From a virus (taxonomy: Duplodnaviria > Caudoviricetes), in the IMG/VR virus record IMGVR_UViG_3300035212_000658, positions 1-27,989 of that record: a stretch of DNA of 27,989 nucleotides. One strand, 5' to 3'. The notes beneath the pieces are model-generated. The model was not told the origin of the DNA and ran no database searches. It saw only the letters and a list, made by a program, of their open reading frames with translations. Position 1 is the stretch's first letter, and each line of letters starts with the position of its first letter. The translations under genes were made by a program, and so were the position numbers. Shown in pieces: positions 10,719 through 15,686 of the stretch.

Positions 10719-10904
10719 ATGCAAACACTCAAAGACATTACCGACCCAAAACACGGAAGCTACAAGGTTGGCGTGCCATTCCAACATGGCAACGGCAACG
10801 TGTACGAAATACACGGCTACAACATTAAACATCAATGCCATAGTCTACTGAATGTAGGCACAGGAAAATTTGAAGTAATGAATGATAACGAAATAACCAA
10901 ATGA
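10719..10904 (+). CDS. Hypothetical protein
   Basis: 61-aa ORF coupled to the next gene. Confidence 0.6.
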   Translation: MQTLKDITDPKHGSYKVGVPFQHGNGNVYEIHGYNIKHQCHSLLNVGTGKFEVMNDNEITK

Positions 10905-11323
10905 CACCATACCAACGCACAGAAATTTATAAGATACTGCAAGCCCACCACGACCTAATCGGAGTGGATAAAGTTTCCGTATCATTGCTAATGAATGCTT
11001 TTAACAACTTAACCCGATTTAGGAAGGTGGAGGATAAGGTATTTGAAGCGGTAAAGTATATCGCTGGAATAGACAAAGATGAAATTACAAGCTATCAAAA
11101 GAAAGCCGATATTATTACGGTGAAATTTATAGCCTGTTCAATCCTGCGTGACGAGGGTTATACTTTGCGAGATATTGGATGTGCTATTCATGTAACCCAT
11201 GCAACGGTAATACACGCCCTTAAACAAGACGAGTTCAGATACAAAACCTACACAGACTACCGCGAACTAAAAAATGCAATAGTTGCAAGGTATAACCAAA
11301 TAAATACTAATTTAGCCAAATGA
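10901..11323 (+). CDS. DnaA C-terminal-like (TrpR-type) HTH protein
   Basis: GYTLRDIGCAIHVTHATVIHA resembles the DnaA domain IV pattern SLxxIGxxFxxDHTTVxHA. Confidence 0.7.
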   Translation: MTPYQRTEIYKILQAHHDLIGVDKVSVSLLMNAFNNLTRFRKVEDKVFEAVKYIAGIDKDEITSYQKKADIITVKFIACSILRDEGYTLRDIGCAIHVTHATVIHALKQDEFRYKTYTDYRELKNAIVARYNQINTNLAK

Positions 11324-11871: not shown

Positions 11872-12390
11872 ATGAAAACAGAAACTGTAAAAATATCGGA
11901 GGTTAAAAGCAACCCCAACAACCCAAGAATTATCAAAGACGATAAGTTCAAGAAGCTTGTTGAATCTGTTAAGACGTTTCCTGAAATGCTAAACATTCGC
12001 CCTATTGTAGTAAATAGCGACATGGTGGTGCTTGGTGGTAATATGCGGTTACGTGCTTGTAAAGAAGCTGGTTTGAAGGAAATACCGATAATCAAAGCCG
12101 ACACGTTAACGCCCGAACAGCAAAGCGAGTTTATCATTAAAGACAACGTAAGCGGTGGAGAATGGGATTGGGATATGCTTGCGAATGAATGGAACGCGGA
12201 GGAGTTGGATGCGTGGGGGTTGGATGTGCCTGTTTTCGCTGGCGAGGACGAGGGCAACTTTGATGATGAGGGTATAGACGGAAAAAGCCAGTACGGGGTG
12301 ATTGTAATGTGCGAAAGCGAGGGTAACCAAGAAAGCGTTTTTAGGGATTTACAGGGTATGGGTTACGAGTGTAAAGTTGTCGTTACATGA
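11872..12390 (+). CDS. ParB N-terminal (ParB/Srx) domain protein with a small C-terminal domain
   Basis: NPNNPRII...KLVESVKTFPEML..RPIVV...VLGGNMRLRAC...IIKDNV..GEWD. Confidence 0.88.
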   Translation: MKTETVKISEVKSNPNNPRIIKDDKFKKLVESVKTFPEMLNIRPIVVNSDMVVLGGNMRLRACKEAGLKEIPIIKADTLTPEQQSEFIIKDNVSGGEWDWDMLANEWNAEELDAWGLDVPVFAGEDEGNFDDEGIDGKSQYGVIVMCESEGNQESVFRDLQGMGYECKVVVT

Positions 12391-13082
12391 TAATAAAAGT
12401 TAGGAATAAAACGGGGGAGTTTACGGGCTACAGGGCATCCCGAGTAAAAAGCCTATTTAACGCGGAGAGCGGGTCGGAGTTTAACCTCGATGCTAACCTA
12501 CCAATCGAGGGAATGGATTGGCAAATAGGGCTAATTGTGGGCGCAAGCGGAAGCGGTAAAACCTCAATCGGAAAAGCACTTTTTGGGGGCGGTAAAATTG
12601 TGGACTTATACGCTGGCTGGGATAACAACATCCCGATAGTTGAGGCAATAAGCCCCGATGGGGACTTTAACTCGGTTACGGGTTGCCTTGCAAATGTCGG
12701 GCTTGGTGACGTACCGAGTTGGCTTAGGCCGTTCAGCGCGTTAAGCAACGGGCAGCAGTTTAGGGCGGGGCTTGCAAGGCTTATATCCGATGCGCCTGAT
12801 GAGGTTATCGTGGATGAGTTCACCTCCGTAATTGATAGGCAAATTGCTAAAATAGGCGCGATGGCTTTTGCTAAGGGGTGGCGAAGGAATAAAGGTAAAA
12901 AGGTCGTTTTGCTTGCGTGTCACTATGATATTATCGAATGGCTACAGCCCGATTGGGTATTTGATACGGGAACGGGCGAACTAAAAAAAGGGAACAGCTC
13001 GAGCCAAGACCAAGCTTCGAGTTGGAAATTCGGAAGGTCAACCAATCTTACTGGCGATATTTTAAGCCGCATTACTATTTAG
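12387..13082 (+). CDS. ABC-type ATPase (N-terminal part of a frameshift fusion with the GNAT)
   Basis: Walker A GASGSGKT, signature LSNGQ, Walker B VIVDEF and H-loop CHYD. No transmembrane partner. Confidence 0.88.
   Translation: MIIKVRNKTGEFTGYRASRVKSLFNAESGSEFNLDANLPIEGMDWQIGLIVGASGSGKTSIGKALFGGGKIVDLYAGWDNNIPIVEAISPDGDFNSVTGCLANVGLGDVPSWLRPFSALSNGQQFRAGLARLISDAPDEVIVDEFTSVIDRQIAKIGAMAFAKGWRRNKGKKVVLLACHYDIIEWLQPDWVFDTGTGELKKGNSSSQDQASSWKFGRSTNLTGDILSRITI
12983..13024 (+). other. Putative programmed -1 frameshift signal
   Basis: In-frame A_AAA_AAA at 12983-12989, a 5-nt spacer, then hairpin CAGCTCGAGC/GCTTCGAGTTG at 12995-13024. Confidence 0.7.
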
Positions 13083-13501
13083 ATTTACCCATGCCCCCAG
13101 CGGCAGAGTACTTTATCGGTACGGTTGACGGTGAGTTGGTTTGTCATTTAGCGGTTGGTTGTATGTTTCAAAACGATGCCTACAGGGCAACAAGATTGGT
13201 GGTTATGCCCGAATGGCAAGGCGCGGGGGTCGGAACAAGGTTTTTGGAGTACGTGGCCGAATACCATAAAAAAGGCTTAGGCCGATGCGCCAAAAAATTA
13301 CCGTGCATGTTTCATACATCGCATCCACAACTAATCGGATATTTACAAAAATCAAAAAAATGGGTACTAAAAAGCCAGCAATTACACGGTAACAAATCAA
13401 GAATTAAAATGCAAATCGGTTCGCCATCTGGGGGAACTAAAAAATTTATGGGCGGCCACTTTCGGGCGGTGCAAGGCTTCAAGTACATAGGCGATAAATG
13501 A
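12989..13501 (+). CDS. GNAT-family acyltransferase (-1 frame, open upstream of the track TTG 13022)
   Basis: RPSFELEIR..WRYFKPHYYL and TRLVVMPEWQGAGVG (GNAT motif A), plus HTSHP. Confidence 0.85.
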   Translation, partial: REQLEPRPSFELEIRKVNQSYWRYFKPHYYLDLPMPPAAEYFIGTVDGELVCHLAVGCMFQNDAYRATRLVVMPEWQGAGVGTRFLEYVAEYHKKGLGRCAKKLPCMFHTSHPQLIGYLQKSKKWVLKSQQLHGNKSRIKMQIGSPSGGTKKFMGGHFRAVQGFKYIGDK

Positions 13502-14208
13502 CGCACGAATTTTACCAAGACGAGAAAAAGCTGCGGGTTTTTATTAGCGGTCAAAAGTATTTTGGGGGGCTAATACTCCGAGAGATGCTAAAGAACCCGC
13601 TCGTTGACGTGGTAGGCGTTTGCTGCCCATTAGACGACACGCATATTGGAAAGGCCGCAGTACTTAACGGGATACCAATGGTGGCGGCTGGGTCGCTTAA
13701 CGTGGATACAATGCCCGAAAACGTGGACTTGGGTATCACCGCACATTCATTTGATTACATAGGCAAGAAAACGCGTTACAAGGCGAAACTTGGATGGATT
13801 GGATACCACCCGAGCCTATTACCAAGACATAGAGGGCGCTCGTCTATTGAGTGGGCAATAAAGATGCACGACTTTGTAACAGGCGGCACAACCTTTTGGC
13901 TTAACTCGGGTATTGATAGGGGCGACATAATTGCACAGGAGGTTGTATGGATAGACCCGAAGCTATTTAGCGTGGACGTAAAAAAGGCGGCTAAGGCGTT
14001 ATGGGAGGGCGAACTTCAAGACGTAGGCGTTAGGCTTATTAATCAAACGGTGGCCGACATAATCGCTGGGCGTGGCAAAAGAACACCCCAACAAAATAAA
14101 TTTAGTACCTTTGAGCCGAGCCTAAAAGTTAACGACATTTACCGCCCAGATGCGCTAATGATTGAACATAGGCCATCGGATAAAACAGCGAACTTACAGC
14201 GTGGCTAA
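13498..14208 (+). CDS. N10-formyl-THF-dependent formyltransferase (Fmt/PurN superfamily)
   Basis: YHPSLLPRHRGRSSIEWAI and GGTTFWLNSGIDRGDIIAQ. Lacks the Fmt C-terminal tRNA-binding domain. Confidence 0.9.
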   Translation: MTHEFYQDEKKLRVFISGQKYFGGLILREMLKNPLVDVVGVCCPLDDTHIGKAAVLNGIPMVAAGSLNVDTMPENVDLGITAHSFDYIGKKTRYKAKLGWIGYHPSLLPRHRGRSSIEWAIKMHDFVTGGTTFWLNSGIDRGDIIAQEVVWIDPKLFSVDVKKAAKALWEGELQDVGVRLINQTVADIIAGRGKRTPQQNKFSTFEPSLKVNDIYRPDALMIEHRPSDKTANLQRG

Positions 14209-14524
14209 TCCCCAAAACATAGAGAAGCATAAATTTCCAAAGGGACAGACGGGAAACCCCAACGGTCGACCTCGTAAGTTGCCCGAGTTGGACAAACTCT
14301 TGGCCGATGTATTGGGCGAAGAAAAGGACGGGATAAGCGCAGCAGAAGCGATATTAAAGGCGTTGAGATTAAAGGCCGCAAAGGGTGACGTGAGGGCTAT
14401 TGAAGTGATGTTAGACCGAGCGTATGGAAAGCCAAAGCAAACAATAAGCGCGGATGTTACGCAATCAATAACTATCCTAAACATCGACCCGTTAGATGAT
14501 TCAATCGACAACGGCACTACGTAA
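14201..14524 (+). CDS. terS: Terminase small subunit (DUF5681-like motif)
   Basis: FPKGQTGNPNGRP, AAKGDVRAI and LDRAYGKPKQ. Directly upstream of TerL. GTG 14201 is the likely start. Confidence 0.75.
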   Translation: MANPQNIEKHKFPKGQTGNPNGRPRKLPELDKLLADVLGEEKDGISAAEAILKALRLKAAKGDVRAIEVMLDRAYGKPKQTISADVTQSITILNIDPLDDSIDNGTT

Positions 14525-15686
14525 AATAGCTGGGCTAAAGAAACGCATCAAAGTAATTCGGGGCGGTCAAGGAGCAGGCAAAACAATAAGCGTACTAATC
14601 CTGCTGATTAACCATGCGGCAAGCAAGCCTGACAAAGAGATTCTAATCATAAGCGCGGAGTTGACCAAGATGCGCTTGACTGTGATTAAGGACTTTGTGA
14701 AGGTGATGAAGATGGCAGGCATTTACGATGAAAGGCGGTTTATAGCTGGCACTCTTTACAGATTTGCAAACGGTTCTTTCATCAAATTCATAGGGCTGGA
14801 TAAGCAGGATGTCGGCAAGGGATTACGCTCAGACATTGTCTATTTTAATGAGGTTAACAAATGCGACTCAGAAAGTTACAGGCAAGTTGCTACAAGGGCT
14901 GGCAAGGTAATTAGCGATTACAATCCTGATGCTAAATTCTTTATTGATACAGAGGTAATAGGCCGCGAGGATTGCGACTTTTTGCAGCTAACATTTGAGG
15001 ATAACGAACTGCTTGGAATAGATGAGCGTAACGAAATACTCAACTACAAGCGTTTGGGCTATAATGAGGATGGCAGCGTTAAAAATAGCTATTGGGCGAA
15101 CATTTGGCGTGTGTATGGACTGGGCGAAGTTGGGGCATTGCAAGGCGTGGTATTCAGCGACTGGAGCGAAATAGATTCAGTTCCACCTAGCGCAAAAATG
15201 GTAGGATTTGGAATGGATTTTGGATATACGAACGACCCGACCACCTGCATTGTGGCCTATGAATACAACGGCCAAAGAATATACGATGAGTTGATTTACC
15301 AAACAGGGCTGCTAAATGGTGACATTGCGGCCTTACTCAAATCAAACGGAATAAGCAAACAGGACAAGGGCTATGCTGACTGCGCAGACCCCAAAAGCAT
15401 TGATGAAATTAACCGCTACGGATTCAATCTAAAGCCTGTAACCAAAGGCGCGGATAGTATTGCTTTCGGGATTAGCATCATGCAAGGGCAGCCGTTTCAA
15501 GTTACGAAAAGAAGCGCAAATATCAAAAAGGAATTGAACGCTTATTGCTGGGATACCGATAAGGACGGCAATACAATCAACAAGCCTATTGATGCCCACA
15601 ACCACGCTATTGATGCCATGCGATACGTTGAGATGATGCTAACCATCAAACCATCATTCAAGCCATTTAGAGCGATCCAATTTTGA
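14496..15686 (+). CDS. terL: Terminase large subunit (PBSX/SPP1-like)
   Basis: RGGQGAGKT, YFNE, DYNP, GMDFGYTNDPT, ADCADPKSI and HAIDAMRY. Confidence 0.93.
   Translation: MIQSTTALRKIAGLKKRIKVIRGGQGAGKTISVLILLINHAASKPDKEILIISAELTKMRLTVIKDFVKVMKMAGIYDERRFIAGTLYRFANGSFIKFIGLDKQDVGKGLRSDIVYFNEVNKCDSESYRQVATRAGKVISDYNPDAKFFIDTEVIGREDCDFLQLTFEDNELLGIDERNEILNYKRLGYNEDGSVKNSYWANIWRVYGLGEVGALQGVVFSDWSEIDSVPPSAKMVGFGMDFGYTNDPTTCIVAYEYNGQRIYDELIYQTGLLNGDIAALLKSNGISKQDKGYADCADPKSIDEINRYGFNLKPVTKGADSIAFGISIMQGQPFQVTKRSANIKKELNAYCWDTDKDGNTINKPIDAHNHAIDAMRYVEMMLTIKPSFKPFRAIQF

Follow-up and report, generated by a model that had tools for sequence, protein, structure and literature searches.

The complete 28-kb virus record IMGVR_UViG_3300035212_000658 (27,989 nucleotides, analysed over its full length and called the window here), which occurs in lake-water metagenomes, carries ahead of its terminase genes a cassette encoding a ParB-N protein, an ABC ATPase, a GNAT-fold acyltransferase and a formyltransferase-fold protein (Fmt). 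Our comparative analysis indicates that the ATPase and the GNAT are the two halves of one gene family and would yield one polypeptide only if a slip occurs between them. We tentatively propose that the cassette is a late phage system for formylating a base in the phage's own DNA, and that its central gene makes two proteins by a programmed -1 slip. The parts of this proposal differ in strength: the recoding, which rests on strong comparative statistics, is very probably real, and the chemistry of DNA formylation is something that we infer.

The ATPase matches positions 3-197 of PHROG 11143 (E 3e-83) and the GNAT positions 195-351 (E 6e-47) of this family of length 357; the former lies in frame 0 and the latter in frame -1, and the two are contiguous in the family across a run of seven A (12983-12989). 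Cultured relatives encode ATPase and GNAT in a single open reading frame (ORF) of 364-409 amino acids (aa). An earlier, sequence-only reading of the window had described four overlapping ORFs at 11872..14208 running into the terminase genes. All four are present on the + strand, with ATGA overlaps joining ParB to ATPase and GNAT to Fmt, but ATPase and GNAT, both falling within PHROG 11143, are not independent genes, and the recoding site at the A7 run between them had been overlooked. Relatives were found by word and pattern searches, and the best 80 of 427 IMG/VR relatives, two of them identical to the window, served as the close set. The junction frame in this set is -1 in 76 loci, in frame in 2 and +1 in 1, and 1 locus is cut off.

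An in-frame A_AAA_AAN heptamer stands at 66 of 66 distinct junctions, where the A runs are 6 (2 junctions), 7 (21), 9 (10), 10 (29) or 11 (4) nucleotides long and never 8. For the 62 distinct -1 junctions analysed (19 of 81 rows were omitted as duplicates, other frames or N), predicted 3' structure is stronger behind short runs than behind long ones (-13.1 versus -6.6 kcal/mol, p 4e-10), being weak in A9-A11 members. The two run classes differ in GC (0.51 short, 0.44 long), and a synonymous-recoding control shrinks the gap in structure (z -1.8 short versus -0.9 long, p 0.024). In the window the hairpin starts 5 nucleotides behind the heptamer and has a 9-bp stem; across 13 chosen A7 sequences 116 of 117 stem cells are paired, with compensatory change in 3 of 9 pairs, against at most 50% paired in slid-stem controls. 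Polymerase slippage is given a threshold of nine or more A in a passage of PMC5009743. With the stronger 3' structure behind short runs and at least nine A in the long ones, the pattern agrees with a ribosomal shift at A7 aided by the hairpin, and with slippage of the polymerase at the long runs. Some observations pull the other way: the window hairpin taken alone is ordinary against dinucleotide shuffles (z -0.73; against synonymous recoding, z -2.3), GC-rich A7 members score near 0 against synonymous recoding, the conserved stop codon described below is absent from 9 of 210 in-frame genes, and in E. coli A_AAA_AAG shifts more strongly than A_AAA_AAA, as stated in part of PMC5009743.

The split might instead stem from an error in sequencing, mark a pseudogene or act as a phase-variable switch between on and off. 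DNA-level slippage would fit the A9-A11 runs at 39 of the 62 junctions and the other frame seen in 3 of 80 loci; the window, however, has a mere A7 with a hairpin, and contigs from three of four other sequencing runs span the break without difference or gap (the fourth has no listed piece across it), which rules out an assembly error as its source. Furthermore, the break recurs not only in the 76 close loci but, at other sequences, in 65 of 80 loci of the P335-type clade (Lactococcus phage P335, Streptococcus prophages), and in-frame genes keep the mirror frame open. We consider an origin of this kind extremely improbable in comparison with programmed recoding. Separate translation of the GNAT from TTG 13022 was likewise rejected, since no start is conserved among relatives: 35 of the 62 distinct -1 junctions have no start codon for a separate GNAT.

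The zero frame behind the heptamer is conserved as well. At 62 of 62 -1 junctions it stays open for about 30 codons and ends at a stop that overlaps Leu in the GNAT motif HYYL; upon simulated recoding of the junctions an earlier stop arises in 75% and a stop at that same codon in 10%. P335-type -1 sites are T-, C- or A-rich, and their tails end in III/ITI as in the window clade. Among in-frame genes it is the +1 frame that is open from linker to stop, in 73/73 GTDB, 49/49 P12024S-type and 11/11 P335-type genes (expected 9.6, 9.7 and 2.5), as well as in 18/24 Jace-type and 8/9 annotated genes (expected 3.7 and 1.9), HYM or HYI genes having been dropped from these clade-by-clade counts. With HYM and HYI genes included, 210 in-frame genes have no +1 stop in the 26 codons before the conserved one, versus 159 expected; the observed-to-expected ratio is 0.72-1.23 in 11 other segments and 0.78-1.08 in the other frame. 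The conserved +1 stop itself is present in 201 of the 210 (96 expected). After dereplication below 75% identity, the remaining 55 genes show 0 stops versus 37 expected and keep the conserved stop in 51 cases.

Within these 55 linkers, 42 hold a codon (CTT, GTT, CCC or CAT) that could re-pair in the +1 frame, and 30 of the 42 codons lie behind a purine-rich Shine-Dalgarno (SD)-like word, a count without a chance control; an A run is found in 4 of the remaining linkers and neither feature in 9. CTT accounts for 28 of 38 linker Leu codons, versus 18% gene-wide, and the in-frame sites resemble the prfB +1 site. Ile exceeds the expectation from codon usage at tail positions -3 (50/55, expected 30) and -1 (53/55, expected 33); the last residues of the short-form tail are under selection. 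On an ATPase tree (a quick IQ-TREE result, 116 rows) the -1 forms within the Fmt clade and those of the P335 clade have separate origins among +1 forms. Given the -1 break and heptamer together with a stop-free +1 frame ending at the same stop, the PHROG 11143 family probably produces two proteins, a short ATPase and a long ATPase-GNAT, with unsplit relatives probably doing so by a slip in the opposite direction. We infer that the family requires the short tailed ATPase as well as the long enzyme, and an asymmetric ABC dimer would be the simplest arrangement of the two.

One subclade (L231-L255) contains in-frame genes with an A9 linker run beside -1 genes with A8-A9 runs, and slippage seems to serve both directions there. 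In Tenacibaculum phage pT24 (L086:3465-4637) an in-frame TGA lies within the GNAT half, and single in-frame stops of this sort are flagged in L109, L161, L166, L263, L363, L365 and L379.

Walker A, signature, Walker B and switch His are all intact in the window ATPase and are kept in 287, 287, 288 and 263 of 288 family members, respectively; a full-length fold search returned ABC nucleotide-binding domains (NBDs) only. Of 301 GNATs, 293 retain the acyl-CoA loop QGxGx[GA] (QGxGxG in the window). The GNAT half is basic (pI 9.6), and its structure model has a pLDDT of 88.5 with residues 131-159 of low confidence. The Mom profile (PF25680) gave no match for the window GNAT; of 92 homologs, one matched it, at E 0.0025. 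The matches listed in two structure searches with the GNAT model did not include Mom, which is no test of closeness.

We regard DNA as the probable substrate of the cassette. In 2013 Iyer et al. predicted that a GNAT paired with an ABC ATPase acylates a DNA base, and a passage in PMC7824862 describes the system as uncharacterised. DNA modification, which the sequence-only reading had also put forward and which is in line with this prediction, leads because of that prediction, the slot behind Mu-like tail genes, the ParB-N partner and the basic GNAT. The same enzymes and recoding could instead serve an RNA or protein acceptor, whether tRNA, a protein of the host or one of the virion: the best structural matches of the GNAT are protein or small-molecule acetyltransferases (RimI, SpeG), which offer nothing in favour of DNA, and its fold is closest to protein acetyltransferases such as Naa and RimI (for RimI, Z 14.2 with an rmsd of 2.7 across 131 residues). 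A protein or RNA acceptor would also agree with weak profile matches to the RNA acetyltransferase NAT10 (E 0.004), with an ABC domain closest to transporter NBDs and not to Rad50/SMC, and with the P12024S-clade gene lying among replication genes without ParB-N. The late position by the terminase or behind tail genes, the ParB-N partner and the published DNA prediction speak against it, and we judge it rather unlikely.

Among loci with enough downstream DNA, the Fmt gene follows the ATPase-GNAT in 67 of 67 close loci and in 64 of 72 GTDB loci, the GTDB set being biased in that it was found with motifs of the Fmt-type clade; conversely, 21 of 25 GenBank phage records with this Fmt also carry the ATPase. 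The co-occurrence of formyltransferase and GNAT, for which the sequence-only reading had suggested a neighbourhood survey, is thus borne out. A natural 540-aa ATPase-GNAT-formyltransferase fusion exists (P0031). Fmt-linked rows form one clade of the ATPase tree (SH-aLRT 100; 40/42 rows) with its own GNAT C-terminus, and the GNAT motif GGH[FLY]RA (GGHFRA in the window) occurs together with Fmt in 130 loci, with neither present in 175 and 9 discordant. Locus L103:1842-2846, where the GNAT frame runs 335 codons, is likely a second triple fusion, and in part of the clade (L008, L016, L082, L137) a second Fmt subtype of 155-170 aa with IFHPS replaces the 220-240 aa GYHPS type.

The window Fmt resembles, on sequence comparison, the thiol-formylating domain of FDH. 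Its six best PDB matches are the FDH hydrolase domain (E 6e-13 to 4e-12), Met-tRNA formyltransferase reaching 7e-8; H104, S106 and D140 align with FDH H106, S108 and D142; [YF]HPS is present in 140 of 142 homologs; and an ESM Atlas search returned formyltransferase clusters only. An Asn two residues before the His has a role in amine formyltransferases and was found in 0 of 140 Fmt homologs. The label 'PurN' (glycinamide ribonucleotide (GAR) transformylase), used by PHROG and GenBank, was rejected at 32 bits against an equivalog cut-off of 150.1. According to part of PMC6802093, the acceptor of the FDH domain is a phosphopantetheine thiol, and a similar reaction yielding formyl-CoA has been proposed for HypX. 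If DNA is the substrate, a formyl-CoA route is rather probable.

The sequence-only reading had placed the two activities in the reverse order, the GNAT adding an acyl or aminoacyl group and Fmt formylating the resulting amine. In such a scheme the GNAT would transfer the aminoacyl group to a base in the manner of Mom, from Gly-tRNA, and Fmt would N-formylate the amine or the donor, blocking a Mom-type rearrangement. Mom is indeed a GNAT that glycylates adenine N6 (PMC13219725, in part), amines are the substrate of most Fmt-fold enzymes, and the single homolog matching the Mom profile would fit as well. This order nevertheless fits less well than one in which Fmt makes the acyl donor, because of the near-universal acyl-CoA loop, the scarcity of Mom matches (none for the window protein) and the closeness of Fmt to FDH. 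The C-terminal domain of Met-tRNA formyltransferase was not found in the 236-aa window protein, for which PF00551 is the sole match and which scores 61.5 bits against the Met-tRNA formyltransferase equivalog cut-off of 201.5. Together with the missing Asn and the CoA-handling genes of sister clades, this makes the aminoacyl order quite improbable.

Fmt stands behind the gene in 0 of 71 P335-type, 0 of 70 P12024S-type and 1 of 40 Jace-type loci. In the Jace-type clade the Fmt slot holds a family III CoA-transferase (19/40) and an aspartate decarboxylase (15/40), which suggests a different acyl donor there, possibly beta-alanyl- or another acyl-CoA. Since the FDH-like Fmt and the CoA-transferase/decarboxylase share a slot, the accessory genes of the family look like acyl-CoA supply. 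In the loci of this clade that carry them (phage Jace, L091:4565-5676, and L338-L378), the decarboxylase (PanD) and the CoA-transferase, which is short, come immediately after the ATPase-GNAT. An ASCH protein occupies the slot in 10 of 71 P335-type loci; the ASCH-domain gene lies behind the -1 type gene in Streptococcus/Oenococcus phages (L174:3496-3873, L175, L176, L180-L203), and an ASCH protein hydrolyses N4-acylcytidines. GenBank labels the ATPase half of the ASCH-linked genes 'ABC iron transporter' and truncates the GNAT; this label and that of 'tRNA-methyltransferase' on homologs were rejected on cut-offs and context.

Several points tell against the formyl branch. The GGH[FLY]RA motif and Fmt mark one clade, so that their linkage is one evolutionary event and not 130; 8 of the 72 GTDB loci of the Fmt-type clade have no Fmt, as do whole clades; HypX is absent from the PDB matches of Fmt; and His-Ser-Asp, found also in amine-formylating Fmt and ArnA, is not specific to thiol acceptors. 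Being absent from some loci and whole clades, Fmt is not essential to the core. All clades might therefore acetylate DNA from host acetyl-CoA, leaving no formyl mark, with Fmt an accessory for folate or formate handling or a proofreading hydrolase; the name hydrolase, also used for the FDH domain, would suit this, as would the lack of Fmt in all P335-type, all P12024S-type and eight own-clade loci. The near-perfect linkage of Fmt within its clade, the ATGA coupling, the triple fusion and the clade-specific GNAT C-terminus argue otherwise, and we hold acetylation alone to be distinctly unlikely.

ParB-N and terminase adjacency are, judging from the loci compared, optional. ParB-N is upstream in 42 of 73 close loci, and where it is missing, its slot holds the tail domain by itself, in an ORF of 41-55 aa. 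Five TerL queries found TerL downstream in 27 of 33 loci with ParB-N and in 1 of 6 without, 25 of 31 records without ParB-N ending within 3 kb. In phiE255, Komp_PAO1_1 and Porphyromonas phages the cassette lies behind tail genes and begins with a 42-54 aa ORF corresponding to the ParB tail; this slot of Mu-like phages we take to be the mom slot. The coupling to terminase described in the sequence-only reading is thus not general: in Mu-like phages the cassette comes after tail genes, and what the loci share is a late position together with the 40-aa ParB tail domain. Phage ParBs without a DNA-binding domain activate DNA-modifying dioxygenases (PMC13229309, in part). When the short ATPase was modelled in complex with the 42-aa tail domain of ParB, the prediction had a score of 0.00 and a mark of 0.32. 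L162:3414-4952 and 10 more GTDB loci, in Mu-like Bacteroidales prophages, have a reverse transcriptase just upstream of the cassette, which likely belongs to a diversity-generating retroelement.

Under the proposed mechanism, ribosomes would slip -1 at A7, yielding a 231-aa ATPase and an ATPase-GNAT of about 371 aa, and the short and long forms would pair as an asymmetric ABC dimer. The Fmt-fold enzyme would move formyl from 10-formyl-THF (tetrahydrofolate) to the CoA thiol, and the GNAT would pass it from formyl-CoA to an exocyclic amine, while ATP turnover may clamp or open the DNA during transfer and the ParB protein or free tail domain may activate the enzyme. The formyl mark would protect the DNA of progeny phages against restriction. 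A difficulty for this chemistry is the lability of formyl-CoA and of N-formyl amides on bases. The acceptor would most likely be cytosine N4, favoured because acyl groups on adenine N6 are reported to be unstable (a passage in PMC13219725). The fullest version, in which formyl-CoA and an asymmetric ABC dimer write an N-formylated base and +1, -1 and polymerase slippage interchange within the family, we put forward as doubtful.

Table 1. Cassette features and adjoining terminase genes, in window coordinates.
Feature	Position	Strand	Basis or remark
ParB-N protein, 172 aa, without DNA-binding middle domain	11872..12390	+	PF02195 residues 4-78, E 2e-8
C-terminal domain of ParB, about 40 aa (PHROG 28816)	12262..12390	+	translationally coupled to ATPase
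Short product: ABC ATPase of 201 aa plus 30-aa zero-frame tail ending I-x-I	12387..13082	+	PF00005
Slippery heptamer A_AAA_AAA, predicted -1 shift site	12983..12989	+	in-frame A_AAA_AAN heptamer conserved
3' RNA hairpin, predicted shift stimulator; 12995-13003 pairs 13016-13024	12995..13024	+	covariation
GNAT domain in -1 frame; C-terminal half of predicted ATPase-GNAT of about 371 aa	12990..13501	+	PF13508/PF00583
Formyltransferase-fold protein, 236 aa, FDH-hydrolase-like	13498..14208	+	PF00551, E 8e-17
Small-terminase-like protein (DUF5681); start probably GTG 14201; adjoining gene that the cassette does not require	14201..14524	+	
Terminase large subunit (TerL), neighbour	14496..15686	+	

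The window has a siphovirus-like layout, with recombination and primase/helicase genes followed by the cassette, terminase, tape measure and a Clp-type protease. Bacteroidota prophages are its nearest named relatives in the ATPase tree, so a Bacteroidota host is likely. Scans of the window for promoters (3 versus 5.3 expected) and terminators (3 versus 3.7 expected) were at chance, and a tRNA gene search found none. A calcineurin-like metallophosphoesterase gene (254-1261) at the left end of the record is followed by about 640 bp (1459-2096) in which no ORF reaches 60 aa; 10901-11323, a short way ahead of the cassette, encodes a protein with a DnaA C-terminal helix-turn-helix, a possible late regulator.

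What appears to be new here is the formyl branch and the family-wide two-way recoding of a predicted ATPase-GNAT family. The literature covered, with most subscription journals out of scope, holds no report of a formyltransferase branch, an experiment or recoding; Iyer 2013, itself out of scope, may mention formyltransferase or ParB. A GNAT recoding case was not found in the main text of the GeneTack survey (PMC3711429) or in the part of PMC5009743 that was covered, although the remainder or the supplements of either may hold one, and the portions covered of PMC10853773 and PMC12839542 do not cover the ATPase-GNAT system. The family is large (5687 proteins among 7999 candidates scored), and its cultured carriers include phages of Gordonia (BiggityBass) and Burkholderia thailandensis (phiE255), both with the Fmt-type cassette, and of Lactococcus (P335, without Fmt), among others, which makes the 2013 DNA-acylation prediction open to direct nucleoside mass spectrometry. 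A formylated base, if true, would add a new chemistry and natural base to phage DNA modification and a new use of formyl-CoA. Databases annotate these genes as broken pairs or plain fusions, each missing one product, and the native slip site would be needed when expressing the cassette. If true, this is also a rare case of one family that swaps +1 and -1 mechanisms yet retains the same outputs.

Among the closest known systems is that of Iyer et al.: it differs in that the window clade adds an FDH-like formyltransferase and would fuse its halves by recoding, neither of which the passage in PMC7824862 names. Its exemplar, phage pT24, belongs to the same phage-borne two-domain family, with a 42% match to the window ATPase. 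Mu Mom is likewise a GNAT-fold protein and late phage gene, presumably in a similar slot to this cassette type in Mu-like genomes. Mom, however, is a single protein with a Gly-tRNA donor and a helix-turn-helix (HTH)-like insertion (PMC13219725, in part). In the window GNAT, by contrast, an acyl-CoA loop is retained, an ABC ATPase is attached and the Mom profile finds no match. TmcA acts on RNA, and its ATPase is of the helicase type. Like the window system as proposed, TmcA/NAT10 are ATP-driven GNATs that acylate a base amine from acyl-CoA, giving N4-acetylcytidine (PMC13219725, in part), but the window ATPase is an ABC NBD and the similarity is weak and motif-level.

The FDH/ALDH1L1 hydrolase domain, the best sequence match, and the HypX N-domain share with the window Fmt a His-Ser-Asp of the same spacing. 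FDH/HypX transfer formyl to a pantetheine thiol, a likeness drawn for the window Fmt from sequence, and formyl-CoA formation by HypX is itself proposed and not demonstrated (PMC6802093, in part); the window Fmt differs in being a stand-alone 236-aa phage protein with no acyl carrier protein (ACP) or dehydrogenase partner. As for recoding, dnaX makes short gamma and long tau ATPase forms by -1 frameshifting, with transcriptional slippage or a reversed layout in some cases, and prfB uses an SD and a CUU_U +1 site, to which we liken the family's +1 linkers (PMC5009743, in part). Unlike in dnaX and prfB, the short form here has a conserved 30-aa tail read from an overlapping frame, and within one phage family the layout switches between +1 and -1. 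Finally, as in the ParB-dependent phage T-dioxygenases, a ParB without a DNA-binding domain stands beside a putative DNA-modifying enzyme (PMC13229309, in part); here the enzyme is another one, and ParB-N is dispensable, the 40-aa tail domain alone being retained.

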